Shown in pieces: positions 18,001 through 24,000 of a stretch of DNA of 64,000 nucleotides. This DNA comes from Candidatus Woesearchaeota archaeon (GTDB lineage Archaea > Nanobdellota > Nanobdellia > SCGC-AAA011-G17 > GW2011-AR18), in assembly GCA_018302765.1 (NCBI GenBank), contig JAGVZG010000003.1, positions 11,081 to 75,080 of the forward strand, given 5' to 3'. Made by a program: the position numbers. Within the stretch, counting starts at the first letter, position 1. Each line of letters starts with the position of its first letter.

Positions 18001-21000
18001 AAATTAATCACACCTTTCTCTTCCACTAGCCTACCAGAATAAAGAATTAACTTAGATTTTATAGGCAAACCTAATTTATTTCTCATTTTTATTTTGTTTC
18101 TCGGTATAAAATCATTTAAAGGAACTCCATTAGTTATAAACTCAACGTCTTTTCTATATTTCTTAAGTTCCTCGTATAGTCTATCACCAACACAAACAAC
18201 AATGTCTACAGAATTAAGTAAGTACTTAAAAATGTAAAAAAATATACCTTTTCCTTTTACGAAATAAATATCGCCACCTCTAATTGTCACAATAGTTGGC
18301 TTTTTATAGAACTTCTTCAAAATTAAGCAAGGTATAGTTGATATTATCCAGTTGCCGTGAATTATATCACACTTTTTTCCTTCTTTGATTGCTTTAATGT
18401 AAAGCCTAAATATGCATGGAATAAGTTGAAACCAAGCAGTAGGATTTCTCTTTAATGATAATGCTATACCGTCTGGATTTATAATATCACTATATTTCTC
18501 ATCTGGTTTTACTAATATTATTTTTACACCTAAAAATTTTAAATTATCCTCTAATGTTTTAATAAATACTCCTCTTGCATTTCCTCTGTACGGATAAGAG
18601 GATGTAATTAAGCATGTTTTCATAGTCAATTAAACAAAATAAATTCATAAAACCAACACAATTAAGCAGCAGTTTGTTCATCAGAAACTGCTCTGCTAGT
18701 TCTCTTGTAACGCATTAATATATTTTCTAAATCTAGGCGTCTTTGTTCTCCTTCCTCCTTACTAATAATACCATGTGATACTAATATTCTATTCATGTCA
18801 TACATCTTATGTGGTCCTTCCAATTCAGGTATCCAATGTGTAACTTCTAAATTTTCTTGCCATCTTCTTTTACTTTCAGATAATCTTTGTTCATACTCAC
18901 AAACAATTTCTCTAGCTTTTGCATCTCTAGGTAATATAGAAACAATTCTTTTAACTTTAATGTGTGGGTAACCAACAACAGGTTCCTCTACCTCCATAGC
19001 TAAACCTTCTGGACTATCTCTCAGATCTTCAGCAATCTTAGTTCCAGGTAAACTAAACAACTTATCATTAATTCTTACAACGCCACCTGATTTTAATTCA
19101 TATGTAATTCCCCTAACACTATTAGCTAAACCAGTAGGAGTTGAATACAAACCAGATAAGATCATATAAGAAACAACATTAAGGTTATAATCTCTACATG
19201 CTCTTAGCGCTAACCTATTTACTTCTGGCCCATTTGACCCTAACTTTTTATTATAAGCCTCCAATTCATTAGCATCAAAACTTTCTACACCGATACTTAT
19301 TCCTACAAAACCAGCATCTCTAGTAGCAGCTAATAATTTATAATTAATTTCAAGTGTCTTAGGATGAACAAAAGTATCTACCCTAGCCTTACCATGATAA
19401 GTAATTTCTCTGCCATCAAGAACTCTAATATTTTCTTTTACTTTCCCAAGAACGTCTAAATCATCCAAAAGTTCATCCTCCGTTCCACCCCTTAAAAACC
19501 ATAAATCATCTTTAAACATCACTTTTCTAGTACCTGGATTCTTTTTCAACAAATCCATTACATAACTGCCAAGATCTTCCCCACGCATAGCTACAATTTT
19601 TGCAGGTCTTCCAAAACTATCTCTATGATAAAAAGTAGTACTACAAAAGCCACATCCCATGGGACAATAATTACTTGTATAAGGTTTAACAGTTAAAAGT
19701 TTTCCTAAAAGAGCAGGATCTTTTAATTGTTGTTCTGTATAATGTGCCTTTAATTGAGCCCAATATTTATCTAAATCAACATCTGTAAAATCAACAGCCC
19801 TTGTAGCTCTTGTAAATTCTTCAAGAGAAAATGGATCACCGTATCCTGTAAATATAGAATGTTTATCATCTTGATCTGATCTCATTCTTAATCCAGGAGG
19901 AGAAGAACCATTACCAACTCTAATGTAAAAACCCTTATCGTTATGCAAATACTTAGCAGGATTTTCCCTGACATTATTAATACCATACCTAAAAATTTTA
20001 TCTAAGAGAGCAGTCATAGGTTTCTCTCCATCTCCTCTAGCTATAACTCTAAGTTCTGGTATATAAGGAAATAATAAATCTCTAGACAAACCTGCTTGTT
20101 GTCCCCCTGCAATATGCAAAGCATTAGGTAATATTCTTGAAGCATCAAGCATATGTCCCATATCTCTAGAAAGAGTATCATGCAGAGGACTATAACCAAC
20201 AATATTATAGCAATGACTAGTCAATCTTGTATTTAATTCAACCCTAGGATCATCATATAAATTAGGATCAAAACAATCAACTTGAACTTTATCTCCATAA
20301 CTAGCTTCTACCCATTTTCTAATTCTATGAATACCTAAAGGAGCAGAATTAAAATAAGTACTTCTATTAGGCCCATCATCAGCATGAATTAATAAAACAT
20401 TTAATCGACCATCACCCATATAATATAAGCCACTTTTGCACATATATAAAATTTATGGATTATAGCTCTAGTGCAATCCTAAGTTTTAAGTAAATTAAGT
20501 ATAGTCCCATTATGCAGCCCAACAAGTCGAATTGATAAGCAAATTTATAGTTTATAATTTAGATATAAAACTAAATTTTTTTACTTACTATAGAAAGTTA
20601 CACGAAAGTCTGAATTATCTGTCTCTTATTATATTTTGTACATACCTATTGCCATAAATTTTATTTCCCTTCAAGACATAATCAGCTAAAAGGAATAACT
20701 TATTCAACAAAAACAGTATTTTAGTTCTCACTACATAAGATTTTTTCTCTAGATTTTTTGTATCAACAAATTCTACATAAAAATTATCATGTTTATGATT
20801 ATTCAGAATCCCACATAATATAGACAAAGCTGAATCCAGATATTTCTTATTATTTGTTAATTCATATATTTTAAGCAAAGTTACTGTAATGTCATTTTGT
20901 GTGTCCAACCATGAAATATTAGTAGATAATCTGCTTAAATTTAACATCTTATCATTAAGTAAATTAGTATCATAATCATGAACTATTTCTGGAATTAAAC

Positions 21001-24000
21001 CTGATTCTGTTTGCCTAGACAAAATTGAGTCAACTAAAGCTTGAGCAAATTCAATTGTGCTGTTATTACCTATTAATCTATATACTTCTAACAAAGAATC
21101 TATAACGCCTCTTTCAGAAGCTAAATAATGAATATTATACTTATCATTTTTAGACCATACAGAGTATAATACTCCATCTCTGTATAATTTAATTTTAACA
21201 TTATCAACCCACTTATTTAAAGCATCGTTTATATCTTCTCTGCATAAAATAAAATTAGTACTAACTAAACTGTCTACTAAATTAGTATTACATTTCGTCA
21301 TGACAGCAGTTTCAAATGAGAAAGAAGTTTTATTTTTAAATAATAATTTAGTTGCAAAATTTAAATAGGATTTTGTGCACGCAAAAGGAAATAAACCTTC
21401 ACTTTTAAAAAATTCATTATTCAACCATGGACTAATCATCCTATTAGCTAAATCCAAATAATTTTTTTCATTCGTAAATTCATAAAGATTTAGAACTTCC
21501 TCAATATAAACACCGCTGAAATTACCAATATGCAAAGGTATCTTAAAAAGCGATGGGTATATCCCAAAATAAATATAACCTTCATCTGACAAAAAATTCT
21601 TAGAAAATCCATCAAAAAACTTTCTGCTTGAAAATAAATAAAAATTATCTTTAGTGATCATATACATTAAGTTAATACCTAAAATAACGTCTGACATTTT
21701 ATCAGCATCAAATAGTCTATAATTGGTTTGCTTGGGGCATTCTTTTTTTGAGGTGTTATAATCTGTTAAAAATAAGCCATTAGGCATTTGAAAATTATGT
21801 ATTATATGCCTGGCCTTCTTATTTGCCCATAAAAAATATTTAGAATCTGCTGTCACATTACCTAACCATGCGACAAAAGGTATATAATTACCAGAATCAG
21901 CTACCACAGCCACACCATAATTTGTCTTATTGTTTAAATCGACAAATTCACAAGGTATGTCATTGTTCTTACTAATATCTATTAAAGAATCAACTAGTAA
22001 TTTAGATTCATTAATCAACATATCTGGGTTGCTTAATAAGTCCTCTACTTTTATCATCAAACCTCCAATATTATAAATTAAGATTTTAAGAAAATTATTT
22101 AAAGTTATCCTAGCAAGACATCTTTATTTTAATTAAATGCCACTAGAATTGATCGTAGTACATATCTAAAAATCTTACACCAAGTTCTCTTATAGCCTTT
22201 ATTCTAGATAATTTAAATGCCATATAACCTAACGGTTTTCCAAATAGTCTCTTTAGTATGTACTGTTCAGATTCTATCTGGAATTCTTTTAACATTTTAA
22301 TTCTTTGTTCAATTGGATACTCCTCAGTCTCAAATGCAGGTTTAAACAAAGCTGTATCTAAAACGCCCCTTGTTTGGGATACTTCTTCGTGCATAGCATC
22401 TAATTCCATTAAAGGCTTAGCATTCTGTCTTACCCAATCATACATTTCCGTACCCGGAAAAGGAACAAGATGCCCCATTTTTGGCATATCTATTTCTAAT
22501 TCCTTAAAAAATTCTATATATTTCTTTTCTTTTTCGTATGTAGATTTAGGCAGACCTGCCATAAAGGGTGCTTTTATTATCAAGCCAGCTCTTTTTGCAT
22601 CTCTAACTGCATTCCTAACTTGTGCAACAGTATGAGGTTTTCTTATAGCTCTTAAAACCTCATCATCTGCACTTTCAATTCCAAAATATAATACTATGCA
22701 ACCAGCATCGTGCATCTTCTTAAATAAATCATAACTTCCTTTACTAGGACTAAAACCCTGACCAACCACCCACGTGAAATTTTTATGTAAACCTCTATTT
22801 ATTATTTCATCGCACATTTCAATAATCCTATTTTTATAAATAGCTATATTATCATCCATGAACTGAAAATTTTTGTTTTTGTATTTTGTATAAACTTGCT
22901 CTAATTCATCTACAACATTCTTTGGACTTCTTACTCTATAAGATGCATTAACTTTTACAGAATCACAAAACTTACAACTATAAGGACAGCCTCTTGAGCT
23001 TGTAATTGGAAACTTAATTTTTGATAATCTACTTTTATATTTCTTAAGAGGAAACAAATCCCAATTAGGAAAAGGCAAAGCATCTAAATCTTGTATTGCC
23101 TTTGGCGGGTTTATTCTTGGAATGCCCTCTTCATTTCTGTAGCATAATCCAGGTATATCATAAAAGCTTTCGCCCCTTTCATATCTATTAACAAACTCCA
23201 ATAAAGAATATTCTCCTTCTCCCATAAACGCATAATCTACAAAAGGTTTATTTAGAAATTTTGTTGGCAATAATGTTACTTCTGGTCCACCAACCACAAC
23301 CATAGCTCCTGTTTCTTCCTTAATAATTTTCATTAGTTCATAGCCCTGATCTAAAGACAATGCTACTAAAGAAAACCCAACAATATCTGGTTTTGATTTA
23401 TGTAATAATTTCTTGAAATACTTAGTGGTATAACCTCTCAAACGCATATCAACCAAAAGAACTTCATGACTTGCTTTTTCTAGTACTGTACCAACATAAG
23501 CTATGCCCATCACCGGTCTTTTTGCAAAATAATTTTCAGCTATATCCTTAGGATATACTAACATTACTTTCATAAACAAAATAAGAGATATTAAGTTTAT
23601 AAATCTTTCCTACAAAAATTATAGTAAAAACAAAAGCTTAAAAATAGTTTCCTTATGCCATTTTTGCTATGAAACAAGAGAGTCAAAAAAATTATAGAAT
23701 AGAATATATTAAACCTGGTTGTATTGGATGCAGGGCATGTGCAAAAATATGTCCAAACTTTTGGGAGATGGAAGATGATAAAACAAAACCATTTCCTAAA
23801 GCAATTCTTAAATTATCTAAAAAAGTAATAAACAAAGAGGGAGTCGTACTAAAAGAAACACTAGAAACCAATGATAAAGAAACAGCTATAACATCTATCA
23901 GTATTTGTCCTGTAACTGTTATAAAGGCATTCGAAACCAAGACAAATAAACAACTAGAGAAACTTTAATTCTTACCTTCGTATAAATTACATTCAAATTT

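Follow-up and report, generated by a model that had tools for sequence, protein, structure and literature searches.

Class B radical SAM enzymes, a co-conserved ferredoxin and an alpha/alpha-toroid protein in a cell-surface glycan island of a Woesearchaeota archaeon

The window analysed here, a 64-kb stretch of DNA from the metagenome-assembled genome (MAG) of a groundwater Candidatus Woesearchaeota (DPANN) archaeon, carries at positions 18662–23968 the genes for two radical S-adenosylmethionine (SAM) enzymes of 593 and 478 amino acids (aa), a 99-aa ferredoxin and a 481-aa helical protein. An earlier note on this DNA had proposed that the four act together to install C-methyl groups on a phosphonate or on a sugar. 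We consider that there is about an even chance that they belong to two separate glycan-tailoring modules built around class B radical SAM enzymes, and not to one phosphonate-methylating unit. The first module would comprise the 478-aa class B enzyme and the divergently encoded single-cluster ferredoxin; the second would comprise a rare, horizontally mobile radical SAM enzyme of class B architecture (585–593 aa), with its own promoter, a co-transcribed family 4 glycosyltransferase (GT4) and a sugar substrate. A role in glycan synthesis is favoured because the genes found consistently beside both radical SAM families are GT4 and other glycan genes. The sugar half of the original proposal therefore fits the comparative data, namely the GT4 and glycan neighbours and the co-conservation of the ferredoxin, and the phosphonate half is weak.

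Results and discussion

The locus

Listing and translation of open reading frames (ORFs) gave four long ORFs in the interval, at 18662–20443, 20615–22060 and 22143–23579 on the reverse strand and at 23669–23968 on the forward strand, with predicted products of 593, 481, 478 and 99 aa, respectively. These are real genes rather than chance ORFs, because DNA of approximately 30% G+C is rich in stop codons and because all four have homologs elsewhere. Pfam and NCBIfam scans of the window place the interval within a cell-surface/N-glycan island of approximately 60 kb, beginning after the threonyl-tRNA synthetase gene, which encodes an AglB/STT3 oligosaccharyltransferase, many family 2 (GT2), GT4 and GT-C glycosyltransferases, two Wzx-type flippases, two carbamoyltransferases, SGNH/AlgX-like proteins, acetyltransferase-like proteins and sugar-nucleotide enzymes.

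The 478-aa class B radical SAM enzyme and its ferredoxin

The 478-aa protein (22143–23579, reverse strand), which probably starts at the ATG at 23573 to give a 476-aa product matching its orthologs, has both a B12-binding domain (PF02310, 60.7 bits against a cutoff of 32.1) and a Radical_SAM domain (PF04055, 70.2 bits), and the cysteines of its CxxxCxxC motif (C198, C202 and C205) are invariant across 32 orthologs. This motif and the PF04055 core, which define the radical SAM superfamily, are found in the 593-aa protein as well. Many class B families in NCBIfam match the 478-aa protein weakly and it reaches the cutoff of none of these subfamilies: the scores, with the cutoffs in brackets, are 177.7 bits (481) for BchE (TIGR02026), 141.5 (577.6) for HpnJ, 120.5 (360) for the ‘lipid biosynthesis B12-binding/radical SAM’ model, 118 (650) for HpnR, 92 (360) for the MgmA-type model (MJ_0865), 62 (500) for AprD4, 38 (500) for the TsrM type and 27.9 (205) for hemN_rel, and, among the P-methyltransferase models (TIGR04479 and NF038361), 132.3 (575) for Sden_1168 and 113 (600) for PhpK. 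KedN5, BzaD and ArsL likewise fall far below their cutoffs, and a model named for Fom3 is absent both from the best 25 of the 35 NCBIfam families matched and from the PDB matches. Of the PDB sequences, AprD4 matches best (56 bits), and the solved class B enzymes OxsB, TokK, CysS, TsrM and MgmA match at 27–51 bits. Judged by these profile and sequence comparisons, the protein is a class B radical SAM enzyme that belongs to no characterised subfamily.

The orthologs of this enzyme stand well apart as a group (39–88% identity, approximately 475 aa), whose named members are Woesearchaeota and other DPANN archaea. Nine genomic contexts of orthologs, including the window, were usable, and approximately 160 contexts of paralogous class B radical SAM enzymes served as a control; the genome scan contributed only four orthologs (42–44% identity) among 80 loci, the rest being used as paralogs, and, in a metagenome scan with the ortholog alignment, which carries generic radical SAM motifs, the matches listed were paralogs of at most 36% identity and added no ortholog context. 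A GT4 gene lies within a few genes (approximately 1.5 kb) of the ortholog in all five contexts in which the ortholog is at least 58% identical, and a GT2 gene (59–67% identity) lies near the orthologs in most contexts, usually together with PMT_2 and LPG_synthase_TM genes.

The 99-aa protein (23669–23968, forward strand; annotated at NCBI as ferredoxin MBS3152080.1) is a ferredoxin of the single-cluster [4Fe-4S]/[3Fe-4S] type, matching Fer4_13 at 31.5 bits (cutoff 24.5) and Fer4_15 at 27.3 bits (cutoff 22.4), with the ligand motif CxxCxxCxxxCP formed by C18, C21, C24 and C28-P and with a distal C80-P. Its gene is divergent from that of the 478-aa enzyme, as had been noted previously, and is separated from it by an A/T-rich intergenic region of 89 bp (23580–23668), which putatively holds the promoters of both genes. 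A ferredoxin gene is kept in all four contexts whose 478-aa ortholog is at least 61% identical (the window and the loci L008, L009 and L172), with identities to the ferredoxin of the window of 82%, 56% and 43% in L008, L009 and L172, respectively, and always at most 1.6 kb from the radical SAM gene; in three of the four it is divergent and adjacent, L008 and L172 having the same layout as the window. No ferredoxin was found beside the more distant orthologs, nor in the approximately 160 paralog loci. The description of this ferredoxin as dedicated is borne out by this pattern of co-conservation, and the protein is likely to be the reductant of the cluster of the 478-aa enzyme.

We picture the first module as follows. 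The ferredoxin would reduce the [4Fe-4S]2+ cluster of the 478-aa enzyme, and the reduced cluster would cleave SAM to give a 5'-deoxyadenosyl radical, which would take a hydrogen from an unactivated sugar carbon. The sugar would be part of a glycan intermediate, linked to a nucleotide or a lipid, that the neighbouring GT4 would produce, and a methyl group would then be delivered by the cobalamin domain, C-methylation being the most probable outcome. The alpha/alpha-toroid protein encoded directly downstream may, in some lineages, be an added part of the module, with an accessory role in binding or converting carbohydrate.

The 481-aa alpha/alpha-toroid protein

The product of 20615–22060 (reverse strand) had been described as an uncharacterised helical protein with no assignable function. 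Helical it is, but at the level of the fold an assignment can be made: the AlphaFold model, obtained with an alignment of 48 sequences, is a 14-helix barrel with a pLDDT of 95.2 and a pTM of 0.94, which identifies the protein, as modelled, as an alpha/alpha-toroid (six/seven-hairpin) with the fold of the six-hairpin glycosidase clan. A Foldseek search with the model returned 293 PDB matches with E ≤ 1e-3, of which the top 50 listed are all alpha/alpha-barrel proteins, including cellobiose 2-epimerases, mannose isomerase, family 2 polysaccharide lyases (PL2, pectate lyases) and mannosidases of glycoside hydrolase (GH) family 47, at TM-scores of 0.5–0.66 and identities of 9–15%. The family profile matches the GH76-like protein 4mu9 (E = 1.7e-18) and GH76 mannanases (approximately 1e-9) in the PDB and, in Pfam, seven families of the six-hairpin glycosidase clan are matched weakly by the protein or its relatives; members of the family match the GH127, GH88, GH47, PL2, C5-epimerase and GH76 models, none of which stands out, the protein of the window itself scoring 19–36 bits.

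An exhaustive profile search found 320 representatives of this family in 1.84 billion proteins, 63 of them below 1e-30, compared with only two relatives from a word-indexed search. D124, G128, K256, D386, D390, D480 and R481 are invariant in the family and E187 is nearly so (at least 90%); the alignment has no invariant histidine, and the invariant His pair of the AGE-type epimerases was not found in it. There is no N-terminal signal sequence. The gene occurs in a GT4–toroid–radical SAM operon in locus L011 and in a run of short-chain dehydrogenase/reductase (SDR), GT4, toroid and nitroreductase genes in locus L006. The protein thus appears to resemble carbohydrate enzymes, to be located in the cytoplasm and to go together with GT4, joined in some lineages by a radical SAM enzyme of the 478-aa type.

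The 593-aa radical SAM enzyme and its glycosyltransferase

The gene for the second radical SAM enzyme (18662–20443, reverse strand) probably starts at the ATG at 20419, the start agreed by other gene callers and by all homologs, so that its product has 585 aa, as in the NCBI record (hypothetical protein MBS3152077.1). A TATA-like box, TTTATATA, lies at 20450–20443, 23 nt upstream of this ATG, and a GT4/GT1 glycosyltransferase gene (17481–18629, reverse strand; Glycos_transf_1 110.6 bits, Glyco_transf_4 44 bits), which is probably co-transcribed with it, follows 32 bp downstream. The two genes would form a transcription unit of their own, separate and probably leaderless. A scan for sigma-70 promoters and terminators, a bacterial model inappropriate for archaea, gave counts equal to those of the shuffled background. 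In L006 and L011 the alpha/alpha-toroid gene has a homolog of this GT4 (31% identity) next to it.

The protein matches Radical_SAM at 32.9 bits (cutoff 29.5) and has no Pfam B12-binding match; C260, C264 and C267 of its CxxxCxxC motif are invariant in 14 members of the family. We place it in class B because several of its relatives match PF02310, because the family profile aligns with the B12 domain of TokK (E = 9e-4), because its AlphaFold2 model (pLDDT 85.3) is matched over its full length in Foldseek by OxsB (1e-16), by TokK, CysS, MgmA and TsrM (to 1e-13) and by AprD4 (1e-12), and because hhalign aligns its family with that of the 478-aa enzyme over 372 columns (probability 99.5, E = 3e-23). 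The earlier note had spoken of two cobalamin-dependent enzymes; this agrees with the B12 domain of the 478-aa protein, whereas for the 593-aa protein class B architecture emerges only from the model, the family profile and hhalign, and the use of cobalamin is what that modelled architecture suggests. Direct BLASTP between the two proteins is not significant (E = 0.012), and they are therefore not recent duplicates. Scores against NCBIfam are low (14.6 bits against a cutoff of 575 for the Sden_1168-type model and 23.7 against 481 for BchE, with no match to the AprD4 model), and HemN (1olt) is matched by the family profile at E = 0.98 and stands at rank 38 in Foldseek (E = 1.2e-3).

The family is rare, with 16 relatives in 5.8 billion proteins, and well conserved, with a mean column identity of 50%. 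All 14 aligned members end (18662–18675 in the window) in an invariant Thr-x-Ala-COOH tail that follows a variable helical region; the model of the tail is of low confidence. The hosts range from 31% to 69% G+C and include Woesearchaeota, Streptomyces sp. 13-12-16 (59% identity) and a tailed phage; it is this range, together with the phage-borne member, that marks the family as mobile, and its patchy taxonomic distribution argues for an old horizontal transfer of the gene. A scan of viral contigs with the family gave no relatives. With an apparent promoter of its own and an independent, mobile history, the 593-aa gene does not form one unit with the other three genes, contrary to the notion that all four act together.

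Six independent contexts of the family are all of the glycan or sugar-nucleotide type, and a glycosyltransferase or an SDR is always adjacent. The neighbour is GT4 in the present organism; in locus L005 the genes encode a carbamoyltransferase, GT2, a nucleotidyltransferase, a GHMP kinase and GT1; in L004 an SDR lies within an SDR–GT1–GT2 operon; and on the contig P0009 GT1 is accompanied by a nonulosonic-acid gene set (NeuB/DegT). In the Streptomyces sequence (L001, 10001–12696) the 59% homolog is tightly paired with a gene of the SDR epimerase/dehydratase family, in a region rich in STAND/NACHT/AAA and JetD_C genes that has no PADLOC match. On the 100-kb tailed-phage contig (L002, 10001–13765) a 38% member belongs to a cassette of radical SAM, GT2, GT2 and methyltransferase genes, which could modify host glycans or phage DNA; PHROGs confirmed the phage genes of this contig, among them those for the terminase large subunit (14714–16105) and the portal (16601–18226). 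PepM was not found in the five contexts outside this organism and, for this reason, we regard the family as linked to glycans or sugar nucleotides and its proximity to phosphonate genes in the window as incidental.

The 593-aa gene had also been taken to share a non-host composition with the phosphonate genes, the 478-aa gene being host-like. This distinction does not hold. The G+C content is 0.335 for the 593-aa gene compared with 0.325 for the 478-aa gene and, at third codon positions, 0.155 compared with 0.228, both within the range of the window (0.125–0.26); the phosphonate genes, at 0.15–0.19 in third positions, are host-like too. The slightly higher total G+C reflects an effect of amino-acid composition, and a foreign origin of the gene as judged by composition was rejected.

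The neighbouring methylphosphonate pathway

A PepM/cytidylyltransferase/Ppd/alcohol dehydrogenase set had been reported near the interval and is indeed present at 27300–32670. It forms part of a neighbouring, separate system on the reverse strand (26533–32670), which consists of genes for a PepM–nucleotidyltransferase (30928–32670; PEP_mutase 159.5 bits, plus NTP_transf_3), a 473-aa protein with helix-turn-helix and cupin domains (29586–31007), Ppd (28442–29584; TIGR03297, 360 bits against a cutoff of 312.5), an iron-dependent alcohol dehydrogenase (Fe-ADH, 27300–28445) and a CDP-alcohol phosphotransferase (26533–27246; CDP-OH_P_transf 32.5 bits). The 473-aa protein, encoded between PepM and Ppd, had been missed. 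It scores 432 bits against the methylphosphonate synthase (MpnS) of Nitrosopumilus maritimus (6b9s) compared with 284 bits against HEPD (6b9r); in the alignment to 6b9s the His/Gln/His iron ligands are kept, and Phe and Ile occupy two positions that distinguish MpnS from HEPD. Born and colleagues reportedly described these positions in 2017 as Phe162 and Ile184, specific to MpnS, with Tyr and Gly in HEPD. The use of a 2-His-1-Gln iron triad is echoed in PMC11978286. By its alignment the protein is a methylphosphonate synthase, and the predicted phosphonate product is methylphosphonate; it likely starts near residue 30, which removes an 80-bp overlap with PepM. The island thus holds an O2-dependent MpnS alongside three genes for O2-labile radical SAM enzymes.

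As far as gene content can tell, PepM, Ppd, Fe-ADH and MpnS together with the CDP-alcohol phosphotransferase are self-sufficient for making and attaching methylphosphonate. The set resembles the methylphosphonate pathway of N. maritimus in its PepM–nucleotidyltransferase, Ppd, Fe-ADH and MpnS, the last with the same iron ligands and specificity residues, but the host is a groundwater DPANN archaeon and not a marine thaumarchaeon or SAR11. Because MpnS yields a P-methyl compound from 2-hydroxyethylphosphonate (2-HEP) by C–C cleavage without a radical SAM enzyme, the main motive for invoking a methylase of the Fom3 or PhpK type in this genome is removed, which makes such an enzyme less likely rather than impossible.

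Weighing the alternatives

Several observations count against glycan tailoring by two separate modules. Neither of the radical SAM families, nor the toroid family, has a member whose substrate or product is known; the 478-aa protein has no close characterised relative, its best PDB sequence matches being at most 56 bits; and the toroid gene is present in only two of the nine ortholog contexts. No cobalamin uptake or salvage genes were seen in the 64-kb window, which covers the glycan island only and has little bearing on the genome, and an Rfam search of the whole window found no cobalamin riboswitch nor any other RNA family. The example of AprD4, which combines this architecture with cobalamin-free catalysis, means that the fold alone does not establish cobalamin use. 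Finally, phosphonate-related genes recur near the 478-aa orthologs: three of the nine contexts (the window, L009 and L014), but none of the approximately 160 paralog contexts, have PepM within 10 kb, and a CDP-alcohol phosphotransferase is present in four of the nine (the window, L014, L015 and the contig P0033), which makes a head-group substrate possible. In L014, a Woesearchaeota MAG, the genes for a 42% ortholog, CDP-OH_P_transf, cytidylyltransferase–PepM, Ppd and Fe-ADH follow one another in this order and directly abut.

These last contexts are the strongest grounds for supposing that the 478-aa enzyme and its ferredoxin act like Fom3 and C-methylate a cytidylylated phosphonate or phospho-alcohol, for example converting CMP-2-HEP to CMP-2-hydroxypropylphosphonate, before the CDP-alcohol phosphotransferase attaches the product to a glycan or lipid. 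The gene set of L014 corresponds to Fom1, Fom2, FomC and Fom3; in L015 the genes that come after a 42% ortholog are those for a methyltransferase, CDP-OH_P_transf and a cytidylyltransferase fusion; and in the window the enzyme is encoded 3 kb from CDP-OH_P_transf. The complete cytidylyltransferase–PepM, Ppd and Fe-ADH set occurs in the window and in L014, is partial in L009 and is absent within 10 kb in L008, L172, L173, L011 and L013. Against a Fom3-like role, no PepM gene is found within 10 kb of the orthologs at 86%, 61% and 58% identity, of which the first two retain the ferredoxin and GT4. The PhpK and Sden_1168 models score far below their cutoffs, MpnS converts 2-HEP to methylphosphonate with no obvious need for a methylase, and neither an HppE nor a FomD-like gene is present. 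We therefore consider this explanation unlikely: for the 593-aa enzyme a Fom3- or PhpK-like role is weakened by the absence of PepM from the contexts elsewhere and by the low score against the P-methyltransferase model, and for the 478-aa enzyme L014 keeps it alive. A bolder version would make the 478-aa enzyme and ferredoxin the archaeal counterpart of Fom3, producing C-methylated phosphonate head groups on surface glycans beside methylphosphonate, and the 585-aa protein a cross-domain, phage-transmissible enzyme with unprecedented sugar chemistry; this we think somewhat less probable still, and the same low expectation attaches to its details, in which a PntC-type cytidylyltransferase–PepM fusion and the CDP-alcohol phosphotransferase would be the partners and 2-hydroxypropylphosphonate an example of the head group.

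The chemistry might, on the other hand, involve a sugar and yet no methyl transfer, the 593-aa enzyme and possibly the 478-aa enzyme using the class B scaffold for other reactions. Candidates are deoxygenation, in which an SDR would reduce the product of a 1,2-diol dehydration like that of AprD4; epimerisation; and rearrangement of a nucleotide sugar in the manner of OxsB. The reductase AprD3 is the partner of AprD4, a diol dehydratase that does without cobalamin and that is both a confident fold match of the 593-aa protein and the best PDB sequence match of the 478-aa protein; the absence of a Pfam B12-binding match in the 593-aa protein of the window, the pairing of its Streptomyces homolog with an SDR and the SDR in the L004 operon all point the same way. 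Against this, the best fold matches are the cobalamin-binding OxsB, TokK, CysS and TsrM, several members of the 593-aa family do match PF02310 and its profile aligns with the B12 domain of TokK, and the AprD4 model is far from its cutoff for the 478-aa protein and unmatched by the 593-aa protein. Chemistry of this kind seems to us rather unlikely, if conceivable. Very improbable is a housekeeping or lipid role, in which BchE/HemN-type tetrapyrrole enzymes, or archaeal-lipid or hopanoid-type class B enzymes, would lie in the glycan island by chance. The best NCBIfam matches of the 478-aa protein are indeed BchE, HpnJ and the lipid-biosynthesis model, but at scores far below the cutoffs; by these scores neither enzyme is of the BchE or coproporphyrinogen-oxidase type with which the earlier note had been concerned, HemN being only a marginal match in fold or sequence, and both families keep their glycan-gene neighbours across distant hosts. 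DPANN archaea, moreover, are not generally known to have pathways for tetrapyrroles, hopanoids or de novo lipid synthesis, which also counts against such a role. Cutoffs and contexts together have already largely refuted it.

Other features of the island and of related loci

At 23965–24210 on the reverse strand a small conserved protein of 81 aa is encoded convergently with the ferredoxin, overlapping the end of its gene by 4 bp. It has weak antitoxin/HicB-like similarity (PHD_like 18.2 bits, below the cutoff), and in L008 and L009 homologs with 48% and 51% identity, respectively, adjoin the ferredoxin/radical SAM pair; a toxin gene that could be its partner was not seen. PADLOC gave no match for this protein, the ferredoxin, the toroid protein, GT4, the 593-aa protein or its Streptomyces homolog, and a single generic match (45.9 bits, to the candidate PDC-M51A) for the 478-aa protein. 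With nothing specific in PADLOC or PHROGs for the proteins of the interval, readings in terms of anti-phage defence or phage genes were rejected.

Elsewhere in the window, a third radical SAM gene (58759–60270, forward strand; Radical_SAM plus SPASM, 503 aa) lies among genes for an HxlR regulator, a nucleotidyltransferase, a 4,6-dehydratase-type SDR and a GHMP kinase, and may encode another sugar-nucleotide radical enzyme. Three tandem SGNH/AlgX-like genes and two NodU/CmcH-type carbamoyltransferase genes, at 4037–9496 and 13983–15716, suggest that one and the same glycan is both O-acetylated and O-carbamoylated.

Class B radical SAM enzymes recur in Woesearchaeota glycan islands. In L173 (8640–20845), a related island of Woesearchaeota type, there are five radical SAM genes per 21 kb, four of them with B12 domains; three stand in tandem, the third of these encoding a SPASM-domain enzyme without a B12 domain. 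L172, L013 and L015 have three radical SAM genes each. In L015 the genes for the CDP-alcohol phosphotransferase and the fusion protein lie at 12088–15727; the fusion, of 961 aa, joins PPDK_N and PEP-utilising mobile domains to one that is cytidylyltransferase-like, an unusual architecture that suggests another CDP-activated head group. In L009 (525–7106) the PepM–nucleotidyltransferase fusion is 44% identical, with no Ppd, Fe-ADH or MpnS within 10 kb, and around it lie a class V aminotransferase gene and another two radical SAM genes, which are unrelated (501 and 587 aa); this set may represent a different phosphonate branch.

Relation to known systems and significance

Both radical SAM enzymes share with OxsB, TokK, CysS, TsrM and MgmA an N-terminal Rossmann domain of B12 type followed by a CxxxCxxC radical SAM barrel, but at identities of only approximately 13–16%, and the substrates of those enzymes (carbapenem, cystobactamid, thiostrepton and nucleoside precursors and a glutamine of methyl-coenzyme M reductase) are in no case found in a glycan context. 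The likeness to Fom3 lies in the gene arrangement: as in the fosfomycin pathway with Fom3 and Fom1/Fom2/FomC (PMC9088020), a class B enzyme is encoded near a cytidylyltransferase–PepM fusion, Ppd and Fe-ADH, both in the window and, in a closer grouping, in L014. The window differs from the Fom3 system in having MpnS and the CDP-alcohol phosphotransferase and in lacking HppE and FomD, and the closest orthologs of the 478-aa enzyme are without PepM. AprD4 and AprD3, an aminoglycoside diol dehydratase and its reductase, resemble the 593-aa family in the class B-like architecture and the recurring pairing of a radical SAM enzyme with an SDR, and AprD4 acts on a sugar, as is proposed for the 593-aa enzyme, but they belong to actinobacterial secondary metabolism and not to cell-surface glycan synthesis. 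GenK, GenD1 and MoeK5 are sugar C-methylating class B enzymes of antibiotic pathways. The likeness here is in the proposed chemistry, the methylcobalamin-dependent C-methylation of an unactivated sugar carbon, and these enzymes act on bacterial small-molecule glycosides rather than on archaeal surface glycans; PMC9088020 makes mention of GenK. The 481-aa protein shares its barrel fold with the GH47, GH76, PL2 and AGE-family enzymes, from which it differs in its low identity, in its invariant Asp, Lys and Arg residues without the AGE-type His pair, in having no signal peptide and in being encoded in biosynthetic operons with GT4 and radical SAM genes. A literature search found no paper on these families or on class B radical SAM enzymes in DPANN glycan loci. 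Both radical SAM families and the toroid family are uncharacterised, yet they are of well-known kinds, and their anatomy demands no new mechanism.

Within the radical SAM superfamily no branch is larger or less well characterised than class B, and nearly all of its studied members belong to antibiotic pathways of bacteria; in the window and in related Woesearchaeota loci its genes form part of islands for archaeal surface glycans, with up to five radical SAM genes per 21 kb. The neighbouring pathway would place synthesis of methylphosphonate, a methane precursor, in a groundwater DPANN lineage; surveys list Thaumarchaeota, Crenarchaeota and bacteria as hosts of methylphosphonate synthase (PMC9381506). 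The pairing of ferredoxin and 478-aa enzyme offers a defined redox partner for reconstitution, and the 585-aa family, small, highly conserved and common to archaea, Streptomyces and phage, is a tractable target in the search for new sugar chemistry. Together with the related loci, the window suggests that DPANN archaea, dependent as they are on contact with host cells, diversify their glycans by radical chemistry.

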